Origin: Candidatus Flemingiibacterium sp.
GTDB taxonomy: Bacteria; Bacillota; Clostridia; Oscillospirales; CAG-272
Assembly: GCA_045589075.1 (NCBI GenBank)
Contig: JAZNFI010000053.1
Span: forward strand, 173 to 64,172
Direction of reading: 5' to 3'
Length of the DNA: 64,000 nt
Positions 1-51,849 of the stretch are shown in pieces. Numbering within the stretch: the stretch's first letter is position 1; every line of letters begins with the position of its first letter. The position numbers and the translations under genes are program-made. A model generated the notes under the pieces. The model was given only the letters and a program-made list of their open reading frames with translations. It ran no database searches and was not told the DNA's origin.

Positions 1-3000
1 GCCTATCCATCAGGTGCTTGTAGAAAAGTGCGTTTCCGGATGGAAGGAAATCGAATTTGAGGTAATGCGTGACGGTGCAGGCAACGTAATAACCATTTGC
101 TCTATGGAAAACGTTGACCCCGTAGGCGTTCACACCGGTGATTCCGTGGTTGTAGCTCCCGCCGTTACACTTTCCGATGACGAGTATCAGATGCTCCGTT
201 CTGCAGCTCTCGACATTATCGAGGAGCTTAAAATTGAGGGCGGCTGTAACTGTCAGTTCGCTCTTCACCCTGAAAGCAAGGAATATGCGGTTATCGAGGT
301 TAACCCCCGTGTTTCCCCTTCCTCTGCTCTGGCTTCCAAGGCTACGGGCTACCCAATAGCAAAGGTTGCGGCGAAAATTGCAATCGGTTACACTCTTCCC
401 GAAATTCTCAACGCGGTTACGGGCACTACCTATGCCTGCTTTGAGCCTACCATTGACTATATGGTTGTAAAATTCCCCAAGTGGCCCTTTGATAAGTTTG
501 TTTACGCAAAGCGTACACTTGGAACACAGATGAAAGCAACGGGCGAGGTTATGGCTATCGGTACTTCCTTCGAGCAGGCTATGATGAAGGCTGTACGCGG
601 TGTTGAGATTGGCATGAACTACCTTTCTCACAAGAAATACCGTGAGCTTACTGACGAGGATATAGCATCGAGACTTCACAACGTGGACGACGAGCGTCTT
701 TTTATCGTTTTTGAGGCACTTCGCCGCGGAACAACCATTGAGAAGATTCATGAAATCACTATGATTGACGAGTGGTTCCTTAACAAGCTTCTTAACCTTA
801 TCGCAATGGAGAGAAAGCTGACTGGGTGCAAGATTACCGAGGAGCTTTACAAGGAAGCAAAGGTTCTCGGCTTCCCCGACAAGCTTATTGAGGAGCTTTC
901 GGGCAAGGCGCTTCCCAAAGGAATGCACAAGAGCGCCGTTTACAAGGTAGTTGACACCTGCGCCGCAGAATTCTCCGCAAACACTCCCTATTTCTACTCC
1001 ACCTACGACGACGAAAACGAGGCTGCCGAGTTTATCGAGAAGAAGAAAGACCCAAGTAAGAAAACGGTTATCGTTTTCGGTTCGGGTCCTATACGAATCG
1101 GTCAGGGCATCGAGTTCGACTATGCTTCGGTACACTGTGTATGGTCACTTAAAAAGGCTGGCTACGATGTGGTTATCGTAAACAACAACCCCGAAACCGT
1201 TTCCACCGACTTCGACACCGCCGACAGACTTTACTTTGAGCCTCTTACCCCCGAGGATGTAATGAACATCATCGAAACTGAAAAGCCTTTCGGTGTAGTT
1301 GTGGCATTCGGCGGTCAGACGGCAATCAAGCTCACAAAATATATGAGCGAGCACGGCGTAAACATTCTCGGAACTTCTGCCGACTCCATTGACGCGGCAG
1401 AGGACAGAGAGCGTTTTGACGCACTGCTTGAAGAAAACAAGGTGGCACGTCCCCAGGGCTACACCGTAATGACTACCGAGGAAGCCCTCACTGTGGCAAG
1501 CCGCATCGGCTACCCCGTTCTTATGCGTCCCTCATACGTTCTTGGCGGTCAGAACATGATTATTGCATTTACAGAGGACGACATCAAGGAATATATGAAG
1601 ATAATCCTTGCAAACAACATCGAAAACCCGGTGCTTATCGACAAGTACCTTATGGGTATAGAGCTTGAGGTTGACGCTATCTGTGACGGTGATGATATTC
1701 TCATTCCCGGCATTATGGAGCACGTTGAAAGAACGGGTATCCATTCCGGCGACTCCATTGCGGTTTATCCTGCATGGAATATTACGGACAAGCTTCGTGA
1801 GGAGATTATCCGGTGCACCAAAAATCTGTCTGTATCCCTTAAGATAATGGGTCTTGTAAATATCCAGTATCTTATCTATCAGAACAAACTCTATGTTATC
1901 GAGGTTAACCCCCGTTCTTCGAGAACTATCCCCTATATAAGCAAGGTTACGGGTGTTCCCATGGTTGACCTTGCAACCCGTTGTATGCTCGGCGAAAGGC
2001 TCGCTGATATGGGCTACGGTACGGGTCTTTACAAAACTTCCCCCTACGTTGCTATCAAGGTTCCCGTATTCTCTTTTGAAAAGCTTATGAACGTTGACAA
2101 CCACCTTGGTCCCGAAATGAAGTCCACCGGTGAGGTTCTCGGACTTGCAAGCACCCGTGAGGAGGCACTTTACAAGGGTCTCGTTGCGGCAGGCTACAAG
2201 CTTAAGAAGCAAGGCGGTATATTCATTACCGTCCGCGACTCCGACAAGTCTGAAATCGGCGAAACTGCAAAGAAGTTCTACGACCTTGGCTTCGAGCTTT
2301 ACGCAACACGCGGAACTGCAAAGATTATCGAGGACTACGGCATGAAGGTGAAGATTGTAGACAAGATTCACGAGGGCGACAACAACACCCTGAAGCTTAT
2401 TGAATCGGGCAGAATCGACTACGTTATCTCCACCTCTGCAAAGGGTCGTATTCCTACCCGCGACAGCGTTAAGATTCGCCGCAAGACGGTTGAGCGTGCT
2501 ATTCCCTGTCTTACTTCCATTGACACGGCAAACGCTATTGCTGACTGCCTAAAGAGCCGTTATTCACAGCACTCCACCGAGCTTGTGAACATCAACGATA
2601 TGCGTACCACCAAAGCTGCACTGAAGTTCACCAAGATGGAGGGCTGCGGCAACGACTATATCTACTTCAACTGCTTCGACCAGCGTATCGACAATCCCGA
2701 AGGACTTGCTATAAGACTCTCCGACCGTCATTTCGGCATTGGCGGCGACGGCGTAGTGCTTATCTGTCCCTCTGATGTTGCAGATGTTAAGATGCGTATG
2801 TTCAATCTTGACGGAAGCGAAGGAAGAATGTGCGGCAACGCTACAAGATGCGTGGCTAAATATATCGTGGACAACAAGATGGTTGACAAAGAGACCGTTA
2901 CCGTTGAAACCCTCAGCGGTATCCGCTCGGCAGATGTTACCAAGGTAAGCGGCGAGGTAAAGACTGTTACCGTTAACATGGGTAAAGCAGAGCTTAACCC

Positions 3001-3466
3001 CTCACTTATCCCCGTGAAGATGTCACTGCGCAACGTAATCGGCGTTCCTGCGCAGATTGCAGGCGGACGCTACCGTATCACCTGCGTTTCCATGGGCAAC
3101 CCACACTGTGTAGTTTTCGACGAGGACTTTGATGATACTCTTGACAATCTCGACCTTGAAACAATCGGTCCAAAGTTTGAAAACGACCAGCTTTTCCCTG
3201 AACGCACCAATACCGAGTTTATAAAGGTACTGAATCCCACAACTCTCAAGATGCGTGTATGGGAGCGTGGCTCGGGTGAGACCTTCGCTTGCGGAAGCGG
3301 TGCTTGTGCGGCAGTTGTAGCAGCGGTTGAAAACGGTTTGTGTCAGAAGAACACCGATATTACGGTGAAGCTCCGCGGCGGTGATTTGATTATCCGCTAT
3401 ACTGACGAGGCAGTATTCTTAAGCGGAGATGCGAATAAGATCTATGAAGGAACTATTATAATGTAA
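1..3466 (+). CDS. carB: Carbamoyl-phosphate synthase large subunit (5' end cut by window) continuing in frame, with no stop codon, into a diaminopimelate epimerase domain
   Basis: The frame of ORF 14..3466 stays open back to base 2. The translation shows both CarB ATP-grasp halves ([32 protein letters not shown]; [33 protein letters not shown]) and the MGS-like tail ([12 protein letters not shown]...YVISTSAKG). It then reads through into DapF sequence. Confidence 0.9.
2600..3466 (+). other. dapF: DapF (diaminopimelate epimerase)-homologous segment of the fused ORF
   Basis: From in-frame ATG 2600 the translation reads [23 protein letters not shown]...[18 protein letters not shown]...[10 protein letters not shown]...[17 protein letters not shown]. 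This is a full-length DapF-like fold with both Cys-containing motifs. No Shine-Dalgarno is seen before ATG 2600 or ATG 2636. Confidence 0.85.
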
Positions 3467-3532: not shown

Positions 3533-3566
3533 AAAAATCCGACCCAAAAGTACGGGTCGGATTTTT
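3533..3566. terminator. Bidirectional rho-independent terminator between convergent carB-dapF and the ABC operon
   Basis: aaaaatccgaccc / aaaagtac / gggtcggattttt. This is a GC stem flanked by an A-run on one side and a T-run on the other. Confidence 0.7.
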
Positions 3567-3574
3567 TGTACCTA

Positions 3575-4600
3575 TTAACCAACGATACCGGAACGCTCAA
3601 TGCCACCGATAAGGTATCTCTGAAGGAAGACATACATTATAAGCAGAGGAGCAAGAATGAGGATACCGCAGGTGTTCTTGATCGCGGATTCATATAGATT
3701 CTGAGCCGCATATTGTGTATCCAAGGTTTTTGGTATGGCAATAATATCCGGCATCATAACCATCTTGGCCTTTGTAAAGAATACAGTGGTGTAGAAGTTA
3801 TCAGTCCACTGCCAAGAGAAGGCGAACAAGAAGATTGTAATCATCATAGGAACGGAAAGCGGGAGAATGATCGTAAGGAATGTTCTGAAAACTCCGCTTC
3901 CGTCGATGTAAGCAGATTCTTCAAGCTCATCAGGAACTCCACGGAAGAACTGACGCATCATAAAGATGTAAAGTCCGTTCTTAAACGCCAAGCCGCCTAA
4001 TGAAAGCAGAGCCAACGGCCAGTAGGAGTTATTAAGGTTCAGGGCTTCACCCATCAGAAGTTCAAATATTCCAAACACATCGAAAAATCTGAACTTCATG
4101 AACATAGAGAGTTGGAGAGTTCTGTGAGGAACTATCATTGTAAAGATAACAAGGAAGAATACCAGCTTGTTGCCCTTGAACTTGAACTTTGCAAGACCGT
4201 AACCGATTACGCAGCACATAAAGGTCTGAATGAGACCGCACAGCACCGAAAGCGTAAACGTGTTGAACAATGCTTCAATGTAACTGTTCTCGCTTATGAT
4301 AGCTCTGTAGGTGTCAAGTGTGGGGTACTTCGGAATGAGTTTTACCGTTACGTCTACAAAATCCTCGCGGCTCATAAAAGAACCGGAAATCTTTGCGAAG
4401 AACGGGAAAAGAATTACATATGAAATACCGATAAGAAGGACGAGTCTGAATATCTTGAAGACTACATTCGTGAGGAAGTTCAAGGTCAGATACCTAGACT
4501 TGAGACGCTCAAGCAGAGGTGTTCTTTCAAACTCAACTCTTATTTTGTTTTTGCTCTCCTTCATGATACGGGGAGCTTTTGGTGCCTGTTGAGAATTCAT
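3575..4600 (-). CDS. Carbohydrate ABC transporter permease (MalG/CUT1-type), distal pair
   Basis: EAA loop EESAYIDGSGVFRTFLTIILPLSVPMM and multiple hydrophobic helices. There is a ~45-aa Lys/Arg-rich N-terminal extension. The gap to the upstream permease gene is 12 nt. Confidence 0.85.
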   Translation of the reverse strand: MNSQQAPKAPRIMKESKNKIRVEFERTPLLERLKSRYLTLNFLTNVVFKIFRLVLLIGISYVILFPFFAKISGSFMSREDFVDVTVKLIPKYPTLDTYRAIISENSYIEALFNTFTLSVLCGLIQTFMCCVIGYGLAKFKFKGNKLVFFLVIFTMIVPHRTLQLSMFMKFRFFDVFGIFELLMGEALNLNNSYWPLALLSLGGLAFKNGLYIFMMRQFFRGVPDELEESAYIDGSGVFRTFLTIILPLSVPMMITIFLFAFSWQWTDNFYTTVFFTKAKMVMMPDIIAIPKTLDTQYAAQNLYESAIKNTCGILILAPLLIMYVFLQRYLIGGIERSGIVG

Positions 4601-4612
4601 TTTCTTACCTCC

Positions 4613-5572
4613 TTAATCGCGTTTCTGATAGAAGACATACGAGCTTAGAATCAGTGCCACCAAACCGATGATAAGAAGAACGATGAGGAAGTATATCCAA
4701 GCCATCGCCGAACTGAGAACATTACCGCCCGTTTGCTTGTACACGGTGGAGATGTAGGTCATAACCTGATTCGACTGCGACGTAAAAGAGTCGATTACGG
4801 TATATATCGCATTTACCAGAATCATCGGGCTTATCATCGGGAAGGTGATCTTCCAGAAGGTTTCCCAAGCGGTTGCACCGTCTATATCACAGGATTCGTA
4901 AATCGCGGGGGAGATAGACTGGAGACCTGCAAGGAAAATAAGCATCTGAACACCGGAACGGTTGATAATGTCGTAAATGTTGTTAACCATATTTACAACA
5001 TACTCAACAAGCTCTGTACCGACCTTCATGTTTTCAAACAATCGTTCGATGTCCACCGCCGACAGTATTTCGGAGGTGGTGTTTTGACCTGAACCGTCGT
5101 TAATACCGGACTCGGTATCGCCCATGTAATCAAGCATGGTGTTTGACTGGTCGATACTGTCTACAATACCGGTAGAAATAATTACCGGGATGAAGAATAT
5201 CGCACGGAACGCCGCACGGCCCATCATCTTCTGATTGAGAAGCACTGCCATGAAAAGTGAGAAAATTACGATAGCCGGAATATCAAATATAAGCTGCTGG
5301 ATACCGGATGTCAGTGTCTGAACAAAACCGGGATCTACAAAGAGAGCACTCTGATAGTTTTCCAAGCCAACGAACTCAAGGGTAAAACCGGCACCCTGTC
5401 CGATCTTAACCTTGTTAAAGCTGAACCGAATTGAGTCAATTACTATCGGAAGATAAATTATAATAAAGCTTAATACAAAGGGAGCGACAAATACATATCC
5501 CGAACGAGCTTTACGAGCGTCCAGAGAGGCTCCGCGCTTGCGTTTTTTAGATGCGCTAACTGTGTTATTCAT
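4613..5572 (-). CDS. Sugar ABC transporter permease (MalF/CUT1-type), distal pair
   Basis: EAA loop YESCDIDGATAWETFWKITFPMISPMI. Basic N-terminus followed by a TM helix. The gap to the upstream gene is 16 nt. Confidence 0.85.
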   Translation of the reverse strand: MNNTVSASKKRKRGASLDARKARSGYVFVAPFVLSFIIIYLPIVIDSIRFSFNKVKIGQGAGFTLEFVGLENYQSALFVDPGFVQTLTSGIQQLIFDIPAIVIFSLFMAVLLNQKMMGRAAFRAIFFIPVIISTGIVDSIDQSNTMLDYMGDTESGINDGSGQNTTSEILSAVDIERLFENMKVGTELVEYVVNMVNNIYDIINRSGVQMLIFLAGLQSISPAIYESCDIDGATAWETFWKITFPMISPMILVNAIYTVIDSFTSQSNQVMTYISTVYKQTGGNVLSSAMAWIYFLIVLLIIGLVALILSSYVFYQKRD

Positions 5573-5588
5573 TTATACCTCTCCTTTC

Positions 5589-8500
5589 TTATTTAACTCG
5601 AGCGAACTCAAGTGCTCCGACTGTATAGGTTTTACCATCGTCAACTACAGTAATGTCAAAGTTATTATAGTTAAGGATGAATGCTTTATTCCCTTCGTAT
5701 GTAACCTTAACGATTCTTCCGTCGTCAGAGGTGTACTTAGTATAAACGTAAGCATTCGGGTCCACCTTATCGGTATTGAAATCGCTGGCCTCGCCATTTC
5801 CGGCGTAAGAAACTGCGTCCCTACCGTAGGTTGCCACAAGGCGTTCTATAAGGAGAGCCGCCTTTTCATCCTTTTGTGCTAATATCTCTTCCTCCAGCGC
5901 GGAAGCAAGTGCAGCCTCTTCTGCTGCTATTTTGTCTGCTTCAATCTCCTCCTCGGAAGGAATACGCTCACCGATAAGGAACTCGTGGTCAACTATCTGC
6001 TTATCCTGAAGATCTGCAAGAATCTCATTGAGTGTTGTGTAAAGCTCCACAAGCTCATCATACCAGATGTCAAACCCCACAGAGTAGTACTTGCTGTACT
6101 GCTTATCTTCCTTAAGAAGCGAAGTATTCTGTGCTGAAAGAGTGAAATACATGGATGAACCGTTCTCTATTGCCTTGAGAAGCTCATATTGTGTGTCACC
6201 CGCCATGTTAATAGCACCGCCGGAGAAGTTTACGCATCCGTGAAGTACCATACCCATGAAAGGTACCGCCTCGCCGGCATTGGAGTAACGGCTGGAATCG
6301 AGCGGTACACCGATAATATGCTCTGCATACTGAGCTGCGTACATATTACCGCCTTCAATCATAACGCTTTCGTAGTTTTCCTCAAGAGAAGCAAGCGCAT
6401 CCATTGTAAACTCCTTGGAATCCTCGCGGTTGTAAGGATCTTTCTTGTCGAAATCGGAGTTAAGATCTGTGCCCAGTGTGGATACTGAAACACCTATAGG
6501 AGCGAGCTTGGAATAATCCGCATTAAAGCCCTCAAGAAGATATTCATATACGGAAGGTGATACTGCCAGTGCGTGACCACGCTCGAAGGATTGGAGTGTG
6601 GAATCGTAGTAACGCTTGGTGGTGTAACGGTTATCCATAGTCTTTACAAGATGCTTCTTGTTGGAGATACCGTCAAATGAACCAAACCCTGCGATATTTG
6701 CAAAATCGAAGTCGGGATACACTCCAATGTCATTTTCGGAAGCATAGCTTACAAAATCGGTAAAGCCGTCGTTGCCGCCAACCGCTTTTTCAAATTCCAC
6801 ATTGTATGGAGCAGTTGCGGTCATTCCTCCGTTTGTATAACCTGTAAGCTTGAAGTTAACATTTGTTATGTTCGCCTCATCCAGCTTCTCGTACATTGTA
6901 CGAAGATCATCAAAGGAAGTAAGTGGCTTCAGTACCTTAACAGGAACAGAGAGAATTTTCTCCATTGTCTCCATAGCACCGAAGGTCTCAATATAGAGAG
7001 GAATTGAATCGCCGGCGTCTTCAATCTGAGTAAGACTTCCCTTTTTGATTAGGTAGTCTCTGTAAGCCTTCGCCATGCCTACATAACTGTCTTCGTAATA
7101 GTCATCAATACCTGCCGCCTCGGCTGACTCATCAGAGGTCAGCATAATGTACTTGATACGGTAGCTTCCGGTGTATTTGCGTTCGGAGACTACTGTATAT
7201 TTAGCATTTGAACCAACTGAAATGGACTCTGCAAGATTGTAAGTGTCCTTAGGTCTTGGATAGAATGTGGTGTAAACCGTGTTGTACTTATGGAGAGCTC
7301 CGCCGTGCTCGGTACTGATTTCGGCAAGTGAGTCACCCTCTTCAATTATTGCCAAAAAGCCGCTGGACTGTTTGCCCTCGGGCATTTTAGGAGCAACCTC
7401 ACCAGCTTCGATCTGCGCCTCGGTAAGCTTCGTAGGATTCCAGCTGTTGGACTCAACAATTCCGTAGACCGGCATCCTCATTATTTCCCTGTTCTGTCCA
7501 CTGACCTCTTGATAAGCATAGTCCTGACCGTAGATCTTACCGGTGATGGTAATCTGCTTGTTTTTCACATCCTCGAAACGTACCAGTGCGCCGGAACCGT
7601 CGGGTATAAAGGTGTAACCCTCCCATTCGGAAGAACCTGCACCAAACCAAGGAAGCAAACTGATGTACGTAAGCTGATACGAGCTTTCGTCAAAACGAAT
7701 ACCGTTAGCAGGGAGACGTACGTCGAGATTTCCATCTTCATCGAGAGTGTACTCAAGAGAAAGTCTGAAGAGAACAGGTACAACGTCGGTACCCTCATAA
7801 CCTGTGATGAGATGATCCTCTTCAAGCATTTCGTACGTATACTCGGGGCAGTACGTCTTTATAATATCTTCGATCATATTAAGGTCACGTTCAGACGCAT
7901 AGGGGTCGAAGGTGTAGATTGCCATTTGCTCACATATGGGGAATGAAGCAATAAGCTCACCTCTCAAACGCTCGGTCAGCGAGGGAGCGTTCGGATCCTG
8001 CAAGGTGTAGTACGCGTTCAAACGGTTTCTGGCTGTACCTTCGGGAACGTTCGCGAGAATAAGCTCCTCAAAACGCTCCTTTTTGATCTGCTTGGGAACC
8101 AGCTTACGGGTCTCCACACGACCCATAGTATACTCCACACGCACACCGTTCTTGATTTTCTTTACGTTGATCTGACCTCTCTGACAAGCCTCAATAAAGC
8201 TGAACATTTCGATCTCGGATGAGTTGTCAGAGTACTTGATAACGATCTGGGAAAGCAGTTCCTCTTTTACCGATTTAGCGGAGGAGGTGCTTGCCACATC
8301 ATATGGATTCGAGAAGAGAATCTGACCGGTTTTAGTATTAACATAGGCGACCTCTCCGGAAATAGGCTCAACATACAGCTCCATACCTGCCTTTGAGAGG
8401 TATTTTGTCATTGTTGCAAGCTTATCCTCGGGAGTTTTAAATTCCTGTGTCAGATAATCTATAGTTGTAAGTCCGGTTTCTGGATCGATACCGGGTACAA

Positions 8501-8609
8501 TTGCCGCATCCGCAGCCGCATTAGATGCACTTACGGGAAGCACTGCTGAGAACATTCCAAAAACCGTTGCAACAGTCAGGAATGCCGATAATAATCTGAA
8601 TTTTTTCAT
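5589..8609 (-). CDS. Secreted ~1000-aa protein of unknown function (reminds me of DUF5696-type proteins; unverified)
   Basis: N-terminal signal MKKFRLLSAFLTVATVFGMFSAVLPVSA/SN with no lipobox Cys. SD TAGGAG lies upstream. I see no catalytic motif I can name. An acidic helical stretch (EEEIEADKIAAEEAALASALEEE) lies near the C-terminus. The gene is embedded in the ABC operon. Confidence 0.8.
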   Translation of the reverse strand: MKKFRLLSAFLTVATVFGMFSAVLPVSASNAAADAAIVPGIDPETGLTTIDYLTQEFKTPEDKLATMTKYLSKAGMELYVEPISGEVAYVNTKTGQILFSNPYDVASTSSAKSVKEELLSQIVIKYSDNSSEIEMFSFIEACQRGQINVKKIKNGVRVEYTMGRVETRKLVPKQIKKERFEELILANVPEGTARNRLNAYYTLQDPNAPSLTERLRGELIASFPICEQMAIYTFDPYASERDLNMIEDIIKTYCPEYTYEMLEEDHLITGYEGTDVVPVLFRLSLEYTLDEDGNLDVRLPANGIRFDESSYQLTYISLLPWFGAGSSEWEGYTFIPDGSGALVRFEDVKNKQITITGKIYGQDYAYQEVSGQNREIMRMPVYGIVESNSWNPTKLTEAQIEAGEVAPKMPEGKQSSGFLAIIEEGDSLAEISTEHGGALHKYNTVYTTFYPRPKDTYNLAESISVGSNAKYTVVSERKYTGSYRIKYIMLTSDESAEAAGIDDYYEDSYVGMAKAYRDYLIKKGSLTQIEDAGDSIPLYIETFGAMETMEKILSVPVKVLKPLTSFDDLRTMYEKLDEANITNVNFKLTGYTNGGMTATAPYNVEFEKAVGGNDGFTDFVSYASENDIGVYPDFDFANIAGFGSFDGISNKKHLVKTMDNRYTTKRYYDSTLQSFERGHALAVSPSVYEYLLEGFNADYSKLAPIGVSVSTLGTDLNSDFDKKDPYNREDSKEFTMDALASLEENYESVMIEGGNMYAAQYAEHIIGVPLDSSRYSNAGEAVPFMGMVLHGCVNFSGGAINMAGDTQYELLKAIENGSSMYFTLSAQNTSLLKEDKQYSKYYSVGFDIWYDELVELYTTLNEILADLQDKQIVDHEFLIGERIPSEEEIEADKIAAEEAALASALEEEILAQKDEKAALLIERLVATYGRDAVSYAGNGEASDFNTDKVDPNAYVYTKYTSDDGRIVKVTYEGNKAFILNYNNFDITVVDDGKTYTVGALEFARVK

Positions 8610-8632: not shown

Positions 8633-10759
8633 TTACAAACGGTACGAAATTTCGGTGATTATGCTGGAAATAAAGCTTACTATCTTAGAAAGCAGCGTAG
8701 AGAAAAGTACACCGATAAACATGATTATCGCCATACCGAGTATGGTACCAACGGAAGTAAGAATGTTCTTCGAGAAGCCGTAATCGTGAGTAACCATCGA
8801 GCCGAAGAAGATAAGTAGTCCTGCCCAGATGAACGCGAAAGAAACGAGAAGATTGATGATGGTCGCCTCTGAAGCTATCGAGAAGTTAGAAATGATAACT
8901 GAAGGAATGATAAGAATGGGCAGAGGAACAAGTGCGTAGCTGGTAGCAACGAAAATGTCCTTGAGGCTGCCTTCACCGTCGAACAGCGTGGTGAGACACC
9001 AGTTAGCTATGGTCCAAAGAAGCAGCGGAACCACAACAGCTATTATCTGTACGAATATGGTGGAGGACTGCTGACGTGGATCAAAAATGTAACCGGTTCC
9101 CACATCCTGATAGTAGAATGCAAGCACAGTAAGCGCAATCCATACTAAGGAAGCTCTTACCGAGCCGCGCTGCTCATGCTTAAGGTCCCAGAATCCGTCA
9201 AAAGGATGTACTACCAGATGCTGGGCATACATAAGCTCCTCCCAGAACGTCTTTCTGCCCTTTTTAAGCTGGGTTTTCTTGTTGAGCTTTGTAGCATACT
9301 TGTTGAAGAGGACGAAAAGCACCACAAGAACGATAACCGTGATAGGAATGAGCAGAATCCAATCCGAGATCCATGCTTTTCTTATCTCTTTGAAAGACTC
9401 TGAATAATTATCGGTATCGTAGGCTGCCTTGTAATACTCAAGAGACTCCTCATATTCCGCATTTCTGTAAAGACTCTTACCAATGCCTATATAGGCAGTG
9501 TCGAAGTTGTTGTTTCTCTTAAGAATCTCGGTCCAGAAGTCAACGGTCTTATCATAGTTGCGCTCATTGGTATTTTTGATGGCATCAATAAGCAGATCAC
9601 CGTATTCGGTCCGTCTGAATACCGTAATACTGTCAGCGTTTTTGTCAAGAACGAGAATATCATTCTCAAGGTAAGCAATCGCCTCAACAGACAGAATGTT
9701 ACCAAGCTGCTGACCCATGTCGCCAAATACGAAGAGAAGGTTTCCGTCTTCATCGTATGTGAAGATCTTGGAACGCTTTTCGTCGATTATCGACCATGTT
9801 CCCTCCGGGCCTACAGCCGCATCGATAATCTTGGAAGCGCCGGTGATCTTAGCGGTGGAGAGGTTTGTTACATTAACCTCACCGCCGGGATTAAAGAATC
9901 CATTGCGCTTCATAATATCGGCACCAGCCGTATTGAGCTTCTTCACAGGCGAATATTCGCTGTTCTTACTCTTAATAGAAGCCTGCTGTGAGCTTTCGGG
10001 AATGGAAGATGTTGTTACATAAAGGAATCCGTTTTCATCAATTGTTATATTGTTGAACTCGGTGGAAACGTACTGCTGAGAAAGTGCTCTCTGCTCGTCA
10101 GTCTGGAAACGTCTCCAAAGAATGTCAAGAGCGTCTACAGTTACCTTCTGAGCACCGATAAAGCCCTGGAACACACCGTCCTCATTGATAGCTATAACAC
10201 CCATGTAGGTGGTAGATGATACTACAAAAATACGACCGTAAGCATCAACTGCTATTGCAACCGGTTTATAGATGGAGCCGGCGGGGAAAACGTCTGCATC
10301 CGGTTCTTCAATGGTCTTATAGTAAGTACCGTCAAGCTGACACATTACAATACGGTTGTTGTCGGTATCGGCAATGTAGATGTACTCATCGGTAACAAAC
10401 ACACCGGACGGAGCCTTAAGACTATCCGGAACTCCGTTCATGTTGATGAATTCGCCAATTGTAAACTTAAGCTTGTAGTATCTGTCAAGAACTACGATTC
10501 TGTTGTTCGCCGCGTCTGCTATGTAAACATTTTTGTTAGCATCCACAACAAGGTCACGCGGGTCGTCAATAGGAGTATCGAGTCCCATATACTGGGAGTC
10601 AACCTTTCTGTCCGGCACGTAAGCATCGGGAGACATAAGAGCGTAACCATCTATAGAGTACGTGTAGGTTGCATAGGGTGTTATTGCTCCGAGTGGGAGA
10701 CAGCCGAGCATAAGCAAAATGCTGGCCGCAAGGGTAAATATTTTAGAGATTTTTTTCAT
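8633..10759 (-). CDS. Exported six-bladed NHL-like beta-propeller fused to a TPR-like segment and a C-terminal Yip1-type polytopic membrane domain
   Basis: Signal-like N-terminus. Blades include NVYIADAANNRIVVLD, YIYIADTDNNRIVMCQ, GRIFVVSS, GFLYVTTSS, KIFTYDEDGNLLFVFG and DILVLDKNADSITVFRR. A TM helix (ILLIPITVIVLVVLFVLF) is followed by HPFDGFWDLKHEQRGS and about five more TM helices. SD AAGGAGGG lies upstream. Confidence 0.8.
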   Translation of the reverse strand: MKKISKIFTLAASILLMLGCLPLGAITPYATYTYSIDGYALMSPDAYVPDRKVDSQYMGLDTPIDDPRDLVVDANKNVYIADAANNRIVVLDRYYKLKFTIGEFINMNGVPDSLKAPSGVFVTDEYIYIADTDNNRIVMCQLDGTYYKTIEEPDADVFPAGSIYKPVAIAVDAYGRIFVVSSTTYMGVIAINEDGVFQGFIGAQKVTVDALDILWRRFQTDEQRALSQQYVSTEFNNITIDENGFLYVTTSSIPESSQQASIKSKNSEYSPVKKLNTAGADIMKRNGFFNPGGEVNVTNLSTAKITGASKIIDAAVGPEGTWSIIDEKRSKIFTYDEDGNLLFVFGDMGQQLGNILSVEAIAYLENDILVLDKNADSITVFRRTEYGDLLIDAIKNTNERNYDKTVDFWTEILKRNNNFDTAYIGIGKSLYRNAEYEESLEYYKAAYDTDNYSESFKEIRKAWISDWILLIPITVIVLVVLFVLFNKYATKLNKKTQLKKGRKTFWEELMYAQHLVVHPFDGFWDLKHEQRGSVRASLVWIALTVLAFYYQDVGTGYIFDPRQQSSTIFVQIIAVVVPLLLWTIANWCLTTLFDGEGSLKDIFVATSYALVPLPILIIPSVIISNFSIASEATIINLLVSFAFIWAGLLIFFGSMVTHDYGFSKNILTSVGTILGMAIIMFIGVLFSTLLSKIVSFISSIITEISYRL

Positions 10760-10770
10760 TTTTACCCTCC

Positions 10771-11643
10771 TTAGTCCTTCATACCCGACGAACCCATGGT
10801 TTCGATGATGTTACTCTGCGTTATAATAAATACAGAAATCGGCACAGCCATCATGACAACCTGGGAAGCCGCTGCAGCACCCGCACGGGCAATACCGCCG
10901 GATACAATCTGGTTAATAGCGTAGTTAAATGTCTTTAACTGTTCTGAATAAATATAGATTGAGTTACCTGCATTCCACAGTCCCTGGAACGAGTAGATTA
11001 TAAGTGTAAGCCACGCAGGCTTAACCATCGGCATCGCGATTTTTAAGAATGTGTAGAACTCGGAAGCACCGTCAAGACGCGCTGATTCAAGAACTGCATC
11101 GGATACCGCAGTCTCCATGAACTGCTTCATGAGGTACAAGCCAAGGGATGTACACCAAGCGGGAACAATTATCGCAAGATATGTATCAACCCAGCCAAGT
11201 GTACTCATGGTAAGGAAGTTAGCGATACCTGTAACGGTAGAGTTAAACATAAGAGAAAGTACGATAACTTCAAATATCCATCTGCGGCCGGGGAATTTAA
11301 TCTTAGCAAGAGCGTATGCCGCAAGCGAGGAAAGAAGAAGGTTTCCTGCTGTACCTGAAACAGATATGAATACCGTATTGAATATGTATCTTGAGAAAGG
11401 AACCCAAGAGGTGCCCATGAGCTTAAACAAGTCTGTAAAGTTCTTGAGCGTGGGGCTCATAACGTAGAAACGAGGTGGAAACATCCACAGCTCATCAAGA
11501 GGCTTCAGTGACTGCATGATAACGTAAAGCATCGGCAGGAACATGAATGCGCCCAAAAGGATGAGCATTATATTAATTCCTATGTCGCCTCCAACCGAAC
11601 GGTTGAGGACAACTTTATGTTTTCTGGTTCTTAATCTTGCCAT
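10771..11643 (-). CDS. Carbohydrate ABC transporter permease (MalG/CUT1-type), proximal pair
   Basis: EAA loop LESARLDGASEFYTFLKIAMPMVKPAW. The gap to the upstream permease gene is 1 nt. Confidence 0.85.
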   Translation of the reverse strand: MARLRTRKHKVVLNRSVGGDIGINIMLILLGAFMFLPMLYVIMQSLKPLDELWMFPPRFYVMSPTLKNFTDLFKLMGTSWVPFSRYIFNTVFISVSGTAGNLLLSSLAAYALAKIKFPGRRWIFEVIVLSLMFNSTVTGIANFLTMSTLGWVDTYLAIIVPAWCTSLGLYLMKQFMETAVSDAVLESARLDGASEFYTFLKIAMPMVKPAWLTLIIYSFQGLWNAGNSIYIYSEQLKTFNYAINQIVSGGIARAGAAAASQVVMMAVPISVFIITQSNIIETMGSSGMKD

Positions 11644-11644
11644 A

Positions 11645-12601
11645 TTATTGTCCCACCTTCGATAAGAGTTTCTTGATAATCAGGTTGCATCCTACCATGA
11701 CCACAAAGAGTACAACCGCGATGGTAGAAGAATAACCAACCTCGACACGCTGTCCGCCGTAGTCCTCAAGGTGATGCATGGTGGTGTGCGCCGCATAGTC
11801 AACCGACGGGAAGCCTGCAAGTGCCGTAACTACCGCACCAAATCCGAATGAACCTGTAATTGCCATAACCGCACCGAACATAAGCTGGGGCTTCATTGTC
11901 GGCAGAGTTATGTACCAAAGCTCCTGCCATCTGTTCTTAACGCCGTCAACAGCACCTGCCTCATAGAGAGACTTGTCGATTGTCTGGAGACCTGCGATGA
12001 ACGAAAGAAAGGAGGTTCCGAGTGAGGTCCAAAGAGCAACTACAATACAGAGTCCCATAACGTAGCTTGCATCCTGGAACCAAAGAATCGGGCTTCGGAT
12101 AAGGCCGAACTCCATGAGCCAAGCGTTTACATAGCCATAGGAGTCGCCGGAGAAAAGCACGCTCCAGATAAGGTAAACCGAACCGGCGATGGAGGGCGCG
12201 TAGAAGATAAGTGTTACTACCGCACGAACCTTGGGTCCAAGCTCGTTGATAAACCATGCAACGAGAAGGGATATAACATAGGATGCGGGGCCTGTTATAG
12301 ACGCAAACACGAGAGTGTTCTGCGCCGCAGTTATAAATATGTCATCATCCAGGAACAATCTGATATAGTTGTCGAGGAAAACGAAGGTAGGAAATTCGAG
12401 AAGGTTGAATTCCGTTAAACTCAGTATAATCGAAAGGACGACCGGGAACACGGTGAAGACCGTAAAGAGAATCATAAAAGGTGCGATCATAAAATACGCA
12501 GTTTTATTACGGGCTATCTCTTTAAGAGTCCACTGGAATTTGGTCATGTCCTTACGGGAAGTCGGCTTTGGCTGATTGGCAGCCGCTGCGTTCTGTGACA
12601 T
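11645..12601 (-). CDS. Sugar ABC transporter permease (MalF/CUT1-type), proximal pair
   Basis: EAA loop YEAGAVDGVKNRWQELWYITLPTMKPQL. SD AAGGAGAG lies 6 nt before the ATG at 12601. Confidence 0.85.
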   Translation of the reverse strand: MSQNAAAANQPKPTSRKDMTKFQWTLKEIARNKTAYFMIAPFMILFTVFTVFPVVLSIILSLTEFNLLEFPTFVFLDNYIRLFLDDDIFITAAQNTLVFASITGPASYVISLLVAWFINELGPKVRAVVTLIFYAPSIAGSVYLIWSVLFSGDSYGYVNAWLMEFGLIRSPILWFQDASYVMGLCIVVALWTSLGTSFLSFIAGLQTIDKSLYEAGAVDGVKNRWQELWYITLPTMKPQLMFGAVMAITGSFGFGAVVTALAGFPSVDYAAHTTMHHLEDYGGQRVEVGYSSTIAVVLFVVMVGCNLIIKKLLSKVGQ

Positions 12602-12695: not shown

Positions 12696-15686
12696 TTAGT
12701 TCTGCGCTGCTATCGCCTCTTCGATGCTCTGGCCAAGCTCAAGTGTAGGAAGATCGAATTCCTGACGTTTTCTGGTGATTTCCTTGTTAATGTCGTCAAT
12801 ATAGCTGAGCATTTCTTCAACAGGATCCGAATTATTATTGTATGCATCAAGGAATGCAAATCCAACATAACGCGCAATAATATATCCGCCGGGCATTTCG
12901 GGGATTATTGCCAGATTGTTGTACTGTGCAAGGATATTTTCAAGATCTGTTGTAGACCACGGCAGGGATTCAAGAGCTTCCTTGTTAGCGGTAGCGTACA
13001 TCGCGCCCTGACCTACGATAGCAACCATTTCGTTAGCGTAATGTGACTGTGTTTCTGCTGTGGTGTACCAATCCATGAATCTCCAAGCATTTTCACGTTT
13101 ATCACATCCATTCATCATTACCATAGCTGTTACCGTGGAAATAGCGGTGTTATTGATATTGCCTTCCTCGTCCTCCATACCTATAATCGGTACGAACTCC
13201 CAAAGATCGCGTATTTCCGTTGCGAATATTGAAAGCTGATTGTACATGGATACGTAGTCGGAGAAGATAATAGGCATCTCACCTGTTCTGAAGCGGTTAG
13301 CCGGATCAAAGGTAACAGGGAAAGAATACTGAGTAAAGTAAGAACAGAGTTTGTCAAATGCCTCAAGTGATGTGTTGGTATCAAGATTTATCTTGGAGCC
13401 GTACCAATTACGGTTGGAGCCGTCGCCGTAAGCTTCGCTGTTAGGATCGTCGTACTCCTTGCCGTCGTACAGATCCTCGCCCATCTGATAGAGGAAGAGC
13501 TGAAGTCCGGGATAGTTTGACGGGACACCAACCTGCATGTTGTTATACTGAAGAACGGGAATTGCCTCCATAAGATCGTCCCATGTCCTTGGAATCTCGA
13601 TTCCCAGTTCTGCAAGTATGTCCTTGCGATAGAACATCATCGAGAAGGACTGGGTCTCGGGAAGACCGTAGGTTGAACCGTAAAGCGACAGCGGAACTAT
13701 TGCAGCCTCGGAGAACCTGGAGGTTACCTCCTCAAATGTATCAAATTCGTTGAGAGGCTGGACCGCATTACGAATAGCATACTGAACAGGAGTGCTCTGC
13801 GCCTGCTCCATCGCTACATCGGGACCGGTTCCGGAAAGGGTCGCGGGAAGGAGCGTACCGCTTACAACAAGTCGGAGATTTACTCCGATGTTGGTTGTGG
13901 AGGTAAAGTAGTTGTCGCACATTGCTCGAACTACCTGCGCCTGGTCGCGTCCTGTCTGTACCCAAACATCGATAACGTCCTCTTCAGCCAGCTCTACCGT
14001 AGCACCAAGATTGGAATAATCGGTGAAGAACGACATCACGAAGGAGCTTATTTCAAACCATAACGCTTCAAAGAAGTTCGCCTCAGCTCTGGGAAGTGCT
14101 GTTCCTGTGGGCTGAATGCAGATATAGTCGAATGAGAGCGGCTGACTTCTTACGCTGTTAAGCCATGTTCCAAGTGTACCGATGTAGCTCTTTAAGGTTC
14201 CGAGGTTATTTGCAACCTCATCTTCGTCGGTAGCCATCTTCTTAAGGACACGAGCGATGTTGTCAAGAGTTGCCGTGTTGCTGCCCTTTTCACCGGTAAT
14301 CTCGGTGATGAGTTTCGAAACCTCATCAAGGACAAGATACTGTTTATACATATCCCTGATGGTATCCGGAATGAGTCCGTTAAAGTTGTAGTCACGGTAT
14401 TCGTCCGGGGTAGCGCCGGTTATCTGAAGAATTTTCAGATAGTCTCTGTTTATAGAGTCAAGCACGTTCTGTACACGACCGATTGTATCGCTCATGTTTC
14501 CGAGAACAACTTCAAACTCGATTGTATATTCCTTACCTTCTTCAAAGTAGAATTTAAACTCGGTTTCGCCGTTGCCAAGAGGTTTTGTTACCCATTCTTC
14601 TGTGAAATTAAACTGAAGATAATTAGCTTCCTCAAAGGGGATCTCACCGTTTATGTAAATGCGGCGAGAGGTATACATACCCGCAAGATCTGCCTGCTTG
14701 TAGCGAGGAACTATGTCATAAAAACCTGTCTTCTCGCACACAAAGGTATATCTTAGCCACTGACCGACACCTTGCCACTTTGTTCCGCCTATATAGTTAA
14801 GCTTGGAAAGCGAAGGGCTCTGGGGTTGTGTCAGAGCTGACGATCTGTCGTTGGCGGGATAGATGGTCTGATCTGATGTGGCGTCGGTAAACTCCGCCTG
14901 GAAGATGATGGGCTCTGCCCCTTCTGCCGAAGCGTCCCCGCACTTCTCGAGATATTCCTCATACGTCGGGAGATCCTCATACGGGAAAAGAGTTATGGAC
15001 TTTAAGATGAGTACCTCACGGCTCGCTTCAAGGGAAATGGTGTGTTCACCTTCCGTAAAGACAAACTCGTAAGGATGCACATTGTAACCGGTGGAATCTT
15101 CAAAAACGTAGGTTCTCCATTCGGGAGAAATGTACTTCATAGGTCTTACGTCATTGCCCTGAAGGTCTTGAACGAACGATTTTGAACCATCCTCATTAAT
15201 TACATAATCATCGCGCCACACTTTACCGATAGCAAGGTATCTCGCACCCTTAAACGGATACTCGCCGTCAACACGGAATTTCCTCTCGATGTCGGTGGAT
15301 TTACCGTCAGCCGGGAAGCTGTATTCAATCTTGATTGCGTATTTCGCATCGGCCGGGATTTCAACATCCCACGCCACAATGCCGGAATTGGGCATATATA
15401 AAGTCCCGTCCTCAACACGCACATCTGCGGTCGTAGCTTCTTTGTTGTAGTCAAGTGCATCAATCACAATAGACTCGGAAGCACGCTTAACGCCGGCATT
15501 TCTGTCGGCATATTCAGCGTACTCCTCGGCGTTTAGAAGGTCCTGAACGTCAGCAATATCGTAGCCAACGGTAGAAGAAGCCTTCTCCTCGGTTTCGCCG
15601 GTGTCAGCCGCTACGCTGAACGCGGAACCGAGTGTCACAAGTGATAAAAACAACGCAATTAACCTTGTTAACTTGGTTTTTTTCAT
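12696..15686 (-). CDS. Giant (997 aa) extracellular solute-binding protein: N-terminal ~550-aa extension with duplicated beta-sandwich-like modules plus a C-terminal family-1-type SBP domain
   Basis: I chose the start at ATG 15686 (MKKTKLTRLIALFLSLVTLGSAFSVAA/D), preceded by AGGAGG. The 48 codons further upstream in the ORF look non-coding. The C-terminal part is SBP-like (SFSMMFYRKDILAELGIEIPRTWDDLMEAIPVLQ). An internal repeat is visible: YAIKIEY..RKFRVDGEYPFKGARYL versus YDIVPRY..RRIYINGEIPFEEANYL. Confidence 0.85.
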   Translation of the reverse strand: MKKTKLTRLIALFLSLVTLGSAFSVAADTGETEEKASSTVGYDIADVQDLLNAEEYAEYADRNAGVKRASESIVIDALDYNKEATTADVRVEDGTLYMPNSGIVAWDVEIPADAKYAIKIEYSFPADGKSTDIERKFRVDGEYPFKGARYLAIGKVWRDDYVINEDGSKSFVQDLQGNDVRPMKYISPEWRTYVFEDSTGYNVHPYEFVFTEGEHTISLEASREVLILKSITLFPYEDLPTYEEYLEKCGDASAEGAEPIIFQAEFTDATSDQTIYPANDRSSALTQPQSPSLSKLNYIGGTKWQGVGQWLRYTFVCEKTGFYDIVPRYKQADLAGMYTSRRIYINGEIPFEEANYLQFNFTEEWVTKPLGNGETEFKFYFEEGKEYTIEFEVVLGNMSDTIGRVQNVLDSINRDYLKILQITGATPDEYRDYNFNGLIPDTIRDMYKQYLVLDEVSKLITEITGEKGSNTATLDNIARVLKKMATDEDEVANNLGTLKSYIGTLGTWLNSVRSQPLSFDYICIQPTGTALPRAEANFFEALWFEISSFVMSFFTDYSNLGATVELAEEDVIDVWVQTGRDQAQVVRAMCDNYFTSTTNIGVNLRLVVSGTLLPATLSGTGPDVAMEQAQSTPVQYAIRNAVQPLNEFDTFEEVTSRFSEAAIVPLSLYGSTYGLPETQSFSMMFYRKDILAELGIEIPRTWDDLMEAIPVLQYNNMQVGVPSNYPGLQLFLYQMGEDLYDGKEYDDPNSEAYGDGSNRNWYGSKINLDTNTSLEAFDKLCSYFTQYSFPVTFDPANRFRTGEMPIIFSDYVSMYNQLSIFATEIRDLWEFVPIIGMEDEEGNINNTAISTVTAMVMMNGCDKRENAWRFMDWYTTAETQSHYANEMVAIVGQGAMYATANKEALESLPWSTTDLENILAQYNNLAIIPEMPGGYIIARYVGFAFLDAYNNNSDPVEEMLSYIDDINKEITRKRQEFDLPTLELGQSIEEAIAAQN

Positions 15687-15896
15687 CAACATTTCCTCCT
15701 GCCAAGAATTACTTTGAAGGGTATAAATTTCTAAAACAGCCAAGCGGTCACGTTTTGTATCTCTGAAACGCCCATGGGTGTGGCAAAAGTCAAGGCGCCA
15801 ACGCAAAGTTATGCACAAAAAGTGTCGCAAAGCAGTGAAATAAGTCGGCGCACAACCACTTCAACATGGCAAGTCCGCCGATTTTTTCATACCTAT

Positions 15897-15925
15897 ATAA
15901 TAACACAACAGCAACAAAAAGTCAA
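15897..15925 (-). promoter_or_regulatory. Candidate sigma-A promoter of the ABC operon (TTGACT-17-TATTAT)
   Basis: On the minus strand, TTGACT (15925-15920), a 17-nt spacer, then TATTAT (15902-15897). This would give a ~200-nt leader before ATG 15686. Confidence 0.4.
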
Positions 15926-42574: not shown

Positions 42575-42797
42575 AATACCCACCTCATCATATTTTTATT
42601 AGTAAGTTCATTACATCACAATCAGCTATAAAAATTATTTCTACGGTAAACTGAAGCATAAATCTGTTTGGCGATCACGTTTCTATACTCTTGAAAATTA
42701 AGACGGGATATTTTATTTTCAAGAAGCCCTTCCCTCCCGGTCAATATCTTTAAGGAAAAACACATAACAATTTTTTGAATTACCCACAGAATTTACG

Positions 42798-51600: not shown

Positions 51601-51741
51601 TGTAAATCCGTCCTCGGAATCATCAAAATCGGCTATCATCAATATCTCATCGGAAGGTGGTGAAGCATTTATCGACAAAGCGAGCAGGCAGCCACAAAAC
51701 AGTGCCGCGAAAAGGGCGAAAATTGTGTTTTTGCATCCCAT
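48643..51741 (-). CDS. 1033-aa type-I membrane protein of unknown function (signal peptide, CBM-like modules at both ends, large central domain, C-terminal TM anchor)
   Basis: I chose ATG 51741 after GGAGGTGG. Signal MGCKNTIFALFAALFCGCLLALSINA. C-terminal anchor YYWIVGGIVIAAATVVVVVFLSKGK. Repeated motif GEWCSISADIGSFDG (N-terminal) and GEWTSVYFDIKSFGD (C-terminal). Confidence 0.8.
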   Translation of the reverse strand: MGCKNTIFALFAALFCGCLLALSINASPPSDEILMIADFDDSEDGFTGGSNADGVRIITANFGDEGTYAERTCLFVECAYRYPNIMRSTKISFDEPIDLTEYRSFEYDIYVPHYEHDDNALYYVRLNLVSEDGTSSYNLGTAAAGEWCSISADIGSFDGRRAIVEAEIALLVDTSVQNITHHGFYIDSVRAAEIVDREMVDRFLFDTFTVAGAKAEVERGKSAIVMTSEVSEPVLLQAAVVMSELPYPVNCLRVHLENNTGSSQMILHYTTFDSQAISEDKSVTVPIEPNSSGQYYYLPIGDASMLHSIELLFGDGKGEIKLISVSPVYRYEPEKTAFFGKITSCELGYGAESLCIVGEINRNAAISYRDSRIAVFKWNSDVLPEPDELALLTPVVEGEMTTRFELIANLAKNDPASRCSRYLAVILHGDGTYSLIDSPFCASNQSIGAFGVGTFEKGAKGMSCDDLSVVCDSDCKVTVLDFNIRSAFGAKSDSEPYIYGGCLYYPRSAYMESVDKKIRMLSDSGIKVVLRFTGLDTVCENELTSMYASDDYVLNQRVSELEDGVDYLGAIAEYTAGRWATGGSVVGVILGDGENRVAENGISIKEQALRTAGQLYSIYASYISKNSQAKVYVSVTDLYDTDPISKENEYVLFEYLPLLIYCAGKYGDFPWELCVEVTHGDRETADYADAADCEELLGLLDENGASGKNLIFCDDVYSMTGKRLSSLMQSYVLGYCSAYFNERVDAYIAEVSSHASAITDTVKYIDTELSNSIFSAVQLALKSGDLSDIISGFDFDKLPRKRISESEAVYDEPSGIKGRFPYFDFGSASGISDMWYGYYAKNISITNDGGTAMTVLFDSAAWGDVGYASWYGIIHRFGHTENMKLTPILKVNMKLDAVTPISVETVPVKLVLVGENERFESVGSVKTGEWTSVYFDIKSFGDIKNTETIQILVGDSKIYSAELSIRSVEGLSYDHNDDTLSEAIANERLKKLSPDEVKDSALYYWIVGGIVIAAATVVVVVFLSKGKADVDE

Positions 51742-51849
51742 ATACTCTCCACCTCCGGCAAATTTTGATAGTATCATTAATATTATAGCATATATTCACG
51801 ATAAATGAAATAGTTTTTCAGAAAATTAATATAAATTTTCGATTCACTA

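Follow-up and report, generated by a model that had tools for sequence, protein, structure and literature searches.

The region described here is a window of 64,000 nucleotides (nt) from Candidatus Flemingiibacterium sp. (contig JAZNFI010000053.1 of assembly GCA_045589075.1), and its subject is the gene of a secreted protein of the DUF5696 family together with the sugar-transport cassette in which this gene is embedded. All positions given below are those of the window. An open reading frame of 1006 codons and a stop runs on the minus strand from 8609 to 5589, with a Shine–Dalgarno sequence (AGGAG) 8 nt ahead of its ATG. The plus-strand translation of 5589..8609 is full of stop codons, and a reading on that strand was discarded. 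A first-pass annotation, made from the sequence alone, had placed a 1006-residue protein here; this holds, with the gene on the minus strand, and every peptide string quoted in that annotation is present in the translation.

The DUF5696 protein begins with MKKFR, a hydrophobic stretch of 20 residues and then PVSA/SNAA, an N-terminus that resembles a type I signal peptide (residues 1–28; 8526..8609, minus strand) with a predicted cleavage site after VSA. Residues 6–24 form its single hydrophobic segment, no Cys occurs in the first 45 residues, and the whole protein contains no LPXTG motif; neither a lipobox Cys nor an LPXTG motif with a C-terminal membrane segment is therefore available for surface anchoring. 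Read from its sequence, the protein looks Sec-exported and unanchored, in agreement with the cleavable signal peptide and missing lipobox, LPXTG motif and C-terminal anchor noted at first. An N-terminal hydrophobic run was likewise found in 117 of 120 close and 142 of 147 distant relatives, and a lipobox in only one and seven of them, respectively, with no LPXTG motif in either set.

The gene is the fifth of seven co-directional and tightly spaced genes on the minus strand, which encode, in order, a 998-residue binding protein, permeases A1 and A2, a protein combining an NHL propeller with a Yip1 domain, the DUF5696 protein, and permeases B1 and B2. Spacings within each half are 11–23 nt, and the genes are preceded by Shine–Dalgarno sites and share one promoter-like site and one terminator. 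The promoter-like site (15897..15925, minus strand) consists of TTGACT, a 17-nt spacer and a TG-extended TATTAT; it is the best sigma-70-type match in the region (10/12), judged by consensus match only. A leader of approximately 200 nt separates it from the binding-protein start (window 15693–15925), and an Rfam search of this leader found no match to a riboswitch or leader RNA. The cassette ends in an intrinsic-terminator-like hairpin (3533..3566) with a 14-bp stem and T run, flanked by A and T runs, which appears bidirectional because it also follows a convergent carB-dapF gene. Weak Rfam matches to small RNAs in this hairpin were below threshold and are probably spurious. No regulator gene and no second glycosidase is encoded within the cassette.

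The first gene (12696..15692, minus strand; inferred start MLMKKTK) encodes a giant extracellular solute-binding protein of 998 residues with Pfam SBP_bac_1 and SBP_bac_8 matches at residues 635–933 of the reading frame. Its structural model, with a predicted local distance difference test (pLDDT) score of 86, comprises a signal peptide without lipobox, two beta-sandwich domains resembling carbohydrate-binding modules (CBMs), a four-helix bundle and a C-terminal oligosaccharide-type binding fold; Pfam CBM_35 was detected in some homologues. The closest Foldseek matches were receptors for cycloisomaltooligosaccharide (9xf5), cycloalternan (Lmo0181, 5f7v), sophoro-oligosaccharide, maltodextrin and cyclodextrin. 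Like the DUF5696 protein, the binding protein has no lipobox, LPXTG motif or other recognisable anchor, and the same is true of approximately 90%–99% of the homologues of the two proteins.

Permeases A1 (11645..12601, minus strand) and B1 (4613..5572, minus strand) are MalF/UgpA-like and 24% identical to each other, and permeases A2 (10771..11643, minus strand) and B2 (3575..4600, minus strand) are MalG/UgpE-like and 28% identical. These assignments rest on NCBIfam and Pfam models (BPD_transp_1 in A1), and both MalG/UgpE-like proteins carry an EAA loop, with the EAA-type motif ESARLDGASEFYTFLKIAMP at residue 186 of A2 and a corresponding motif at residue 228 of B2. The combination of an SBP_bac_1/8 binding protein with MalF/MalG-like permeases bearing an EAA loop identifies the system as a CUT1-type ATP-binding cassette (ABC) importer. 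No gene for a cognate ATPase of the MsmX/UgpC type was found in the cassette or elsewhere in the window, the only ABC ATPase of which (40628–42583) is fused to an exporter membrane domain. Sharing of ATPases between sugar importers is usual in Bacillota.

The fourth gene (8633..10759, minus strand) encodes 708 residues, in which a signal peptide and an extracellular NHL beta-propeller (Pfam NHL, SBBP) are fused to a multi-pass membrane domain of the Yip1 type (residues 515–681), with transmembrane segments at residues 467–485 and 567–690. The DUF5696 gene had been described as lying between two permease pairs. This is correct for the cassette as a whole, but the direct upstream neighbour is the NHL/Yip1 gene and not a permease gene.

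The protein belongs to Pfam family DUF5696 (PF18952), as the first-pass annotation had suggested: the match of 493 bits (E = 1.4e-147; curated gathering score 25.6 bits) extends over residues 274–878 and profile positions 20–576 of 612, and all 120 listed homologues carry the same domain. The family is large, with 2138 matches in a database clustered at 90% identity; with clustering at 50% identity, 5499 cluster representatives matched at E <= 1e-3 and 2978 of these at E <= 1e-30. Relatives were found in the genomes of at least 510 species, most of them Clostridia from gut and rumen, the closest being metagenome-assembled genomes (MAGs) of Candidatus Flemingiibacterium and other gut and rumen Clostridia. 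At E <= 10, the Pfam scan of the protein returned only DUF5696, with neither Glyco_hydro_129 nor Glyco_hydro_101. No NCBIfam model matched, and a phmmer search of the PDB with the single sequence gave only a chance-level match to a de novo protein (E = 0.45). Nothing credible was found by Pfam at E <= 5 in the first 240 residues, in the C-terminal domain or in the N-terminal extension of the binding protein. Full-text literature searches for DUF5696, PF18952, the RefSeq accessions of cultured homologues, and Yip1 with sugar transporters retrieved no paper on the family or the cassette.

An AlphaFold2 model built from 43 homologues (mean pLDDT 81; predicted template modelling score 0.78), with secondary structure assigned by DSSP, consists of a signal helix, a mainly beta region at approximately residues 60–500 with a helical insert, a barrel at approximately 505–882, a helix at 885–927, a disordered stretch and a beta domain at 958–1005. 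The N-terminal beta-sandwich region with its insert (residues 60–500; 7110..8432, minus strand) contains the invariant residues N100-P101, D336 (in the motif PDGSG), D362 and D454. The (beta/alpha)8 barrel (residues 505–882; 5964..7097, minus strand) is homologous to the catalytic barrel of glycoside hydrolase (GH) family GH129. It is followed by an acidic helical stalk (residues 885–957; 5739..5957, minus strand), in which helix 885–927 gives way to the low-confidence stretch, and by a C-terminal domain of five strands with pLDDT of approximately 88–92 (residues 958–1006; 5592..5738, minus strand).

The stalk is lacking in homologues from Butyrivibrio and Paenibacillus, in which HELL is followed directly by the beta domain. 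Where family members reach 1200–2500 residues, the extra length sits between the barrel and the C-terminal beta domain and is rich in Ala, Lys, Glu and Thr and helical in character; a Pfam scan of these inserts (approximately 500 to 1500 residues) identified no domain. The acidic helix is thus, on sequence comparison, a lineage-specific insertion of 0 to approximately 1500 residues. The beta domain stands at the extreme C-terminus whatever the length of the stalk, aligns to residues 636–676 of the GH129-like enzyme ZGAL_3152 (confidence 3–5), and is what this glycosidase fold ordinarily has at its C-terminus, the counterpart of an immunoglobulin (Ig)-like domain in GH129-like enzymes.

In a Foldseek search of the PDB with the model, the top-ranking structures belonged to GH129, namely ZGAL_3152/DagB (5opq; E = 7.8e-27) and NagBb (5wzp; E = 6e-21); their template modelling (TM) scores, normalised to the target, were 0.68–0.72. 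GH101 followed at approximately 1e-12 (TM 0.26–0.34), then GH31 and GH36, all at approximately 10% identity. ZGAL_3152 has been described as consisting of a beta-sandwich at 35–299, a TIM (triose-phosphate isomerase) barrel at 300–620 and an Ig-like domain at 621–693 (PMC5698469), and the DUF5696 model has its domains in the same order.

The relation was also detected by profile comparison. Sequences of ZGAL_3152 (complete 5opq) and of NagBb residues 223–620 were recovered through full-length metagenome homologues aligned to the PDB chains. With hhalign, a profile of 151 DUF5696 members matched a GH129-like alignment of 15 sequences at E = 1.9e-4 (probability 48%) over 313 colinear columns (query 484–882 against 286–634), and matched the single NagBb sequence at E = 2.2e-5 (probability 76%) over 295 columns. 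Controls remained at noise level, with E = 0.54 for the reversed template and 0.30 and 0.47 for the E. coli GH31 proteins YicI and YihQ; GH31 was accordingly dropped as a template.

Shared blocks along the chain were read from a permissive hhalign realignment. Residues 66–106 aligned with ZGAL_3152 34–74 at high confidence, as did the blocks ELYVEPISGEVAYVNTKTGQILFSNPYD with KLNINIDSKTGCFSVTEKTSGHVWKSDPWE and SYVGMAKAYRDY with DYVDMAKVYQKE. Further high-confidence pairs were MPVYG with MPWWG, IEGGN with TEHGQ and VDHEFL with KSHEYL, and VPFMGMVLHG paired with both APLFNLVYHE of ZGAL_3152 and VPLYNLVYHD of NagBb; the C-terminal beta domain paired with the Ig-like domain. The three-domain architecture of GH129 was thus recovered by Foldseek, by DSSP topology and by colinear hhalign blocks in all three domains. 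At the level of sequence similarity only profile–profile comparison detects the relation (E = 2e-5 to 2e-4), and the resemblance to GH101 is structural only (E of approximately 1e-12), with no Pfam match to that family. Because the profile matches are colinear and include high-confidence blocks while the controls stay at noise, DUF5696 is a remote yet genuine relative of the GH129 group, lying outside GH129 by ordinary family criteria.

These results bear on most of what the first-pass annotation had read from the sequence. The (beta/alpha)8 barrel akin to GH clans that it envisaged is present in the model and in the Foldseek matches, and the acidic coiled segment ahead of a small C-terminal beta domain corresponds to the modelled helix, disordered stretch and five-strand domain. 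Its view that the protein, if an enzyme, would fall in a family with no assigned activity still stands, given that no paper, NCBIfam model or meaningful PDB sequence match was found; a confident match to a characterised CAZy family, which would have spoken against this view, is absent at the family level, the link to GH129 being remote. The statement that the protein has no recognisable catalytic motif holds for searches at the Pfam level but is partly overturned by the profile–profile and fold comparisons.

Conservation was measured in 151 representatives that were <= 50% identical to one another. P335, D336, G337 and G339 were invariant, and Y359, G360, D362, P379, G382, G416 and G424 were >= 97% conserved, which bears out the earlier impression that the motifs then listed were conserved. 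In PDFDF (P631, D632, F633, D634, F635) identity was 84%–93%, with D632 and D634 acidic in 97%–99%, and Y970, N979 and N981 were conserved in the C-terminal domain. Polar residues at the ends of barrel strands were strongly conserved, namely E540, D632, D634, D718, R727, N754, S772, H789 and N800.

Profile alignment with ZGAL_3152 paired its E517 with E751 (confidence 7), D483 with D718, D486 with D720, H556 with H789 and E531 with I765. Mutation of D486 or E517 inactivates ZGAL_3152, and the NagBb residue equivalent to D486 is D435 (PMC5698469). In the alignment with NagBb, D435 paired with D714 at low confidence and E478 with G753, two residues from E751; the 'fixer' residue D330 paired with T596 and the stacking residue W398 with Y667. 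By sequence alignment, the protein therefore has acids at or next to every canonical GH129 position, with the exact nucleophile remaining ambiguous. Asp was found in 93% of representatives at 718, 85% at 720 and 50% at 714. D714, the first guess from the motif TDLNSD, was dropped as nucleophile on account of this low frequency. At position 751, Asp or Glu occurred in 68% family-wide (Ser 18%, Asn 9%) and in approximately 98% of the close subfamily; approximately 98% of close relatives, like this protein, keep acids at 718, 720 and 751. In the homologues from Butyrivibrio and Paenibacillus, at 27% identity, D718 is the only Asp kept in the beta4 loop, and PDGSG, D362, N754, H789 and E814 are also kept; position 751 is occupied by Asp in the former and by Ser in the latter. 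Since D718 (codon 6456..6458, minus strand; LNSD718F after barrel strand beta4) is Asp in 93% and is the sole beta4-loop Asp retained at this distance, it is provisionally the best nucleophile candidate, although the assignment is ambiguous. E751 (codon 6357..6359, minus strand), at the end of barrel strand beta5, is provisionally the likely acid/base in this subfamily. In ZGAL_3152, the N-domain acid D202 takes part in catalysis (PMC5698469), and by analogy the invariant N-domain loops with D336 and D362 may join the active site here.

Taking sequence and model together, we favour the view, with a probability of roughly 0.55, that the DUF5696 protein processes glycans outside the cell as an enzyme, probably a retaining alpha-glycosidase, supplying an ABC importer of several components. 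GH129, GH101, GH31 and GH36 are all retaining families that act on alpha-linked D-sugars. A retaining alpha-glycosidase or transglycosidase is predicted because every structurally related family is one. The CBM-like domains of the giant binding protein would capture a polymer or a large oligosaccharide, and the DUF5696 enzyme would cut or trim the captured glycan, probably at an alpha-glycosidic bond and by double displacement. The nucleophile would be an Asp of the beta4 loop (best D718), with an acid/base near E751 and possibly some help from the D336 and D362 loops. The products could then be imported through the two different permease pairs, which would be energised by a shared ATPase of the MsmX/UgpC type encoded elsewhere, and the NHL/Yip1 protein might act as a membrane-embedded assembly or docking platform retaining both unanchored secreted proteins.

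The same residues and gene order could also be explained if the protein were a non-catalytic pseudo-enzyme, derived from a glycosidase, that binds glycan and serves as receptor or gate for the second permease pair. Its gene immediately precedes those of permeases B1 and B2, the place expected of a binding-protein gene, and the cassette provides a single binding protein for two permease pairs. Furthermore, the acid/base position varies (Ser/Asn 27%), D714 is only 50% conserved, and the most invariant residues are found in N-domain loops, away from the GH129 catalytic positions. However, approximately 98% of close relatives retain the three acids, conserved residues, among them H789, N754, D632 and D634, crowd the catalytic face of the barrel, and acid/base positions differ even between NagBb and ZGAL_3152, both of which are genuine enzymes (PMC5698469). 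In Butyrivibrio, two ordinary binding proteins are encoded after the second permease pair, suggesting that classical receptors serve it. To our knowledge, there is no case of a glycosidase-fold protein docking on MalFG-type permeases, which also counts against this explanation. A receptor or gate of this kind is rather doubtful, and between the polymer-processing enzyme and the accessory receptor proposed in the first-pass annotation, the evidence leans to the enzyme.

A second alternative retains catalysis and changes the reaction: the protein might be a transglycosylase that makes a defined, possibly cyclic, oligosaccharide for this transporter, as in cycloalternan and cycloisomaltooligosaccharide systems, or else a phosphorylase or lyase. 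Retaining enzymes of this fold class (GH31, GH13) commonly transglycosylate, and the binding protein is structurally closest to receptors that take cyclic or long oligosaccharides. The variable acid/base position is compatible with altered chemistry, and the cassette encodes no second glycosidase. The Foldseek ranks among binding proteins are nevertheless close (E = 1e-16 to 1e-14) and not ligand-specific, the sequence has nothing that separates transfer from hydrolysis, and the neighbourhood of the cassette has no conserved gene for an intracellular enzyme dedicated to a cyclic product. We regard this alternative as improbable.

To assess the conservation of the cassette, its seven proteins were compared by tblastn with 84 related loci, in which the DUF5696 proteins were 46%–78% identical to that of the window. 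Gene order and strand were identical in all 84 loci; 67 were complete and the others ended at contig ends. Median identity was highest for the permeases (65%–77%) and lowest for the binding protein (47%) and the DUF5696 protein (52%), and long-stalk variants of DUF5696 occupied the identical cassette. At 27% identity, the cassette was also found on plasmid pNP243 of Butyrivibrio fibrisolvens D1 (L102) and on a plasmid of Paenibacillus cellulosilyticus. On pNP243, a GH43 gene and genes for a histidine kinase and response regulator lie upstream and the two ordinary binding proteins downstream; in the Paenibacillus copy, a ugpC-type ATPase gene lies directly upstream. The identical arrangement in Butyrivibrio and Paenibacillus indicates that the module spans Clostridia and Bacilli, and many Bacillota of gut and soil share it.

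Two further observations concern these loci. In pNP243 (9789–11884), the NHL-repeat and YIP1 parts are separate, overlapping genes, in place of the fusion found in the window and in Paenibacillus, and this split supports the idea that the two parts function together. In addition, a Clostridia-type cassette at approximately 50% identity occurs on contigs filed under Methanocorpusculum sp., an archaeal MAG (L048), and Bulleidia sp. (L055), a filing that is likely due to binning contamination rather than transfer.

The surroundings of the cassette raise the possibility that it works on the bacterium's own envelope or capsule polymer, with the DUF5696 protein as a surface-polymer hydrolase whose stalk reaches through the wall. 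The flanks of the 84 loci are mostly housekeeping genes (nifS in 31 loci, nifU in 18, and also carAB and alaS) rather than catabolic genes or regulators, the cassette in the window includes no regulator, and the stalk, helical, Ala-rich and variable in length, is reminiscent of fibrillar surface proteins. In contrast, MalFG/UgpAE-type permeases with a CUT1 binding protein are importers of external sugars, and the CBM_35-like domains of the binding protein would fit the capture of foreign polysaccharide. On the Butyrivibrio plasmid, the neighbours of the cassette are a GH43 gene, a two-component system of the sugar type and further binding proteins, and ROK, GH32, GH27, GH123 or GH3 genes sporadically adjoin the cassette in other loci. 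An envelope role appears highly improbable.

The two secreted proteins of this presumably single-membrane bacterium share the lack of an anchor. A lipobox was found in 12 of 120 binding proteins, and in 1 of 120 and 7 of 147 DUF5696 proteins in the two sets described above, and its absence is unusual among Gram-positive binding proteins. Because a lipobox is normally absent from both secreted proteins, the missing anchors suggest retention through protein–protein contacts, for which the NHL/Yip1 protein would be the candidate partner.

Several findings weigh against an enzyme that feeds an importer. The Pfam scan gave no GH129 or GH101 match even at E <= 10, and an hmmsearch of the PDB with the 43-sequence DUF5696 profile, again at E <= 10, returned nothing. 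The nucleophile pairings conflict, with NagBb D435 falling on D714, ZGAL_3152 D486 on D720 and the best-conserved Asp being D718, in a loop aligned at low confidence. Position 751 is Ser or Asn in approximately 27% of representatives, including Ser in Paenibacillus, D714 is Asp in only half of them, and the most invariant acids (D336, D362, D454 and E814) lie off the canonical GH129 catalytic positions. On the transport side, there is one binding protein for two permease pairs and no importer ATPase gene within the window, and no membrane or wall anchor was found that would account for retention of the enzyme. The flanking genes in the 84 loci gave no consistent clue to the substrate.

Comparison with known enzymes places these points in context. 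NagBb, the GH129 alpha-N-acetylgalactosaminidase of Bifidobacterium bifidum (5WZN, 5WZP), has the three-part architecture and (beta/alpha)8 barrel in common with the DUF5696 protein, as well as the motif pairs ICKTYRAYV and MAKAYRDYL, VPLYNLVYHD and VPFMGMVLHG, and YLHLDGW and NFKLTGY (NagBb first). However, identity is approximately 10%, D435 and E478 map uncleanly, and NagBb has no counterpart of the approximately 200 extra N-terminal residues or of the stalk and is not part of such a transporter cassette. ZGAL_3152 is the best structural match, with colinear first beta strands, barrel and Ig-like domain. Both proteins have N-domain acids of note, catalytic D202 in ZGAL_3152 (PMC5698469) and invariant D336 and D362 in DUF5696, whereas E531 of ZGAL_3152 has no acidic counterpart here (I765). 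ZGAL_3152 comes from a marine member of the Bacteroidota, is predicted to be anchored in the outer membrane and belongs to a carrageenan polysaccharide utilisation locus, not to a Bacillota ABC cassette. The authors of that study proposed its homologues as a family separate from GH129 (PMC5698469), and DUF5696 is more distant from GH129 than they are. GH101 (EngBF 2ZXQ, SpGH101 5A56), GH31 and GH36 have the fold class in common (Foldseek E = 1e-13 to 1e-9), with TM of only 0.26–0.44; alpha specificity is predicted because this fold class acts on alpha-linked D-sugars.

The transporter resembles Bacillota CUT1 importers that use a shared MsmX/MsmK/UgpC ATPase, which likewise combine an SBP_bac_1/8 binding protein with MalF/MalG-like permeases. 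Unlike the usual CUT1 systems, it has two divergent permease pairs (24%–28% identity) in one operon, a binding protein of 998 residues with CBM-like domains and a helical bundle but no lipobox, and obligatory NHL/Yip1 and DUF5696 genes between the permease pairs. A membrane protein of the Yip1 family is also encoded with an ABC transporter in YknWXYZ of Bacillus, where YknW modulates assembly of the transporter complex (PMC4887032). That system differs in that YknYZ is an exporter of the MacB type, an NHL propeller is missing from YknW and no glycosidase-like partner takes part.

A more far-reaching form of the enzyme interpretation, which we put forward only tentatively, is that DUF5696 constitutes a new GH family, sister of GH129 and GH101, whose members are not free enzymes but obligate extracellular subunits of a Bacillota uptake machine that has not been described before. 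Its eight components would be the giant CBM-bearing binding protein, the two distinct permease pairs, the NHL/Yip1 protein as scaffold, the enzyme and a shared ATPase. Together they would link the capture of a glycan at the cell surface to its cleavage and import, as a Gram-positive functional counterpart of the Bacteroidota Sus system, and catalysis would draw partly on N-domain loops (PDGSG and D362) instead of the canonical GH129 acid/base. The kinship with GH129 and GH101 provides a testable enzymatic hypothesis with named residues for a large family to which no function has been assigned, and DUF5696 may flag a CAZy family that might at present be overlooked when carbohydrate-active enzymes are annotated in gut metagenomes. 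A cassette this constant suggests an ABC importer type in which an enzyme and a scaffold are integral subunits; if confirmed, this would change how Gram-positive glycan uptake loci are recognised. The cultured carriers B. fibrisolvens D1 and P. cellulosilyticus make the question open to experiment.

Two other genes in the window were also of note. A minus-strand gene at 48643–51777 encodes a protein of 1044 residues whose only Pfam match is DUF5722 (E = 4.8e-10, residues 469–686). The convergent gene on the plus strand (14–3466), an open reading frame that runs off the window start, encodes a protein in which the large subunit of carbamoyl-phosphate synthase (ATP-grasp, oligomerisation and MGS domains) continues in frame into a diaminopimelate epimerase, with two DAP_epimerase domains, at the C-terminus. 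This carB-dapF fusion is unusual, and an identical fusion of 1355 residues is present in a related MAG (L001).

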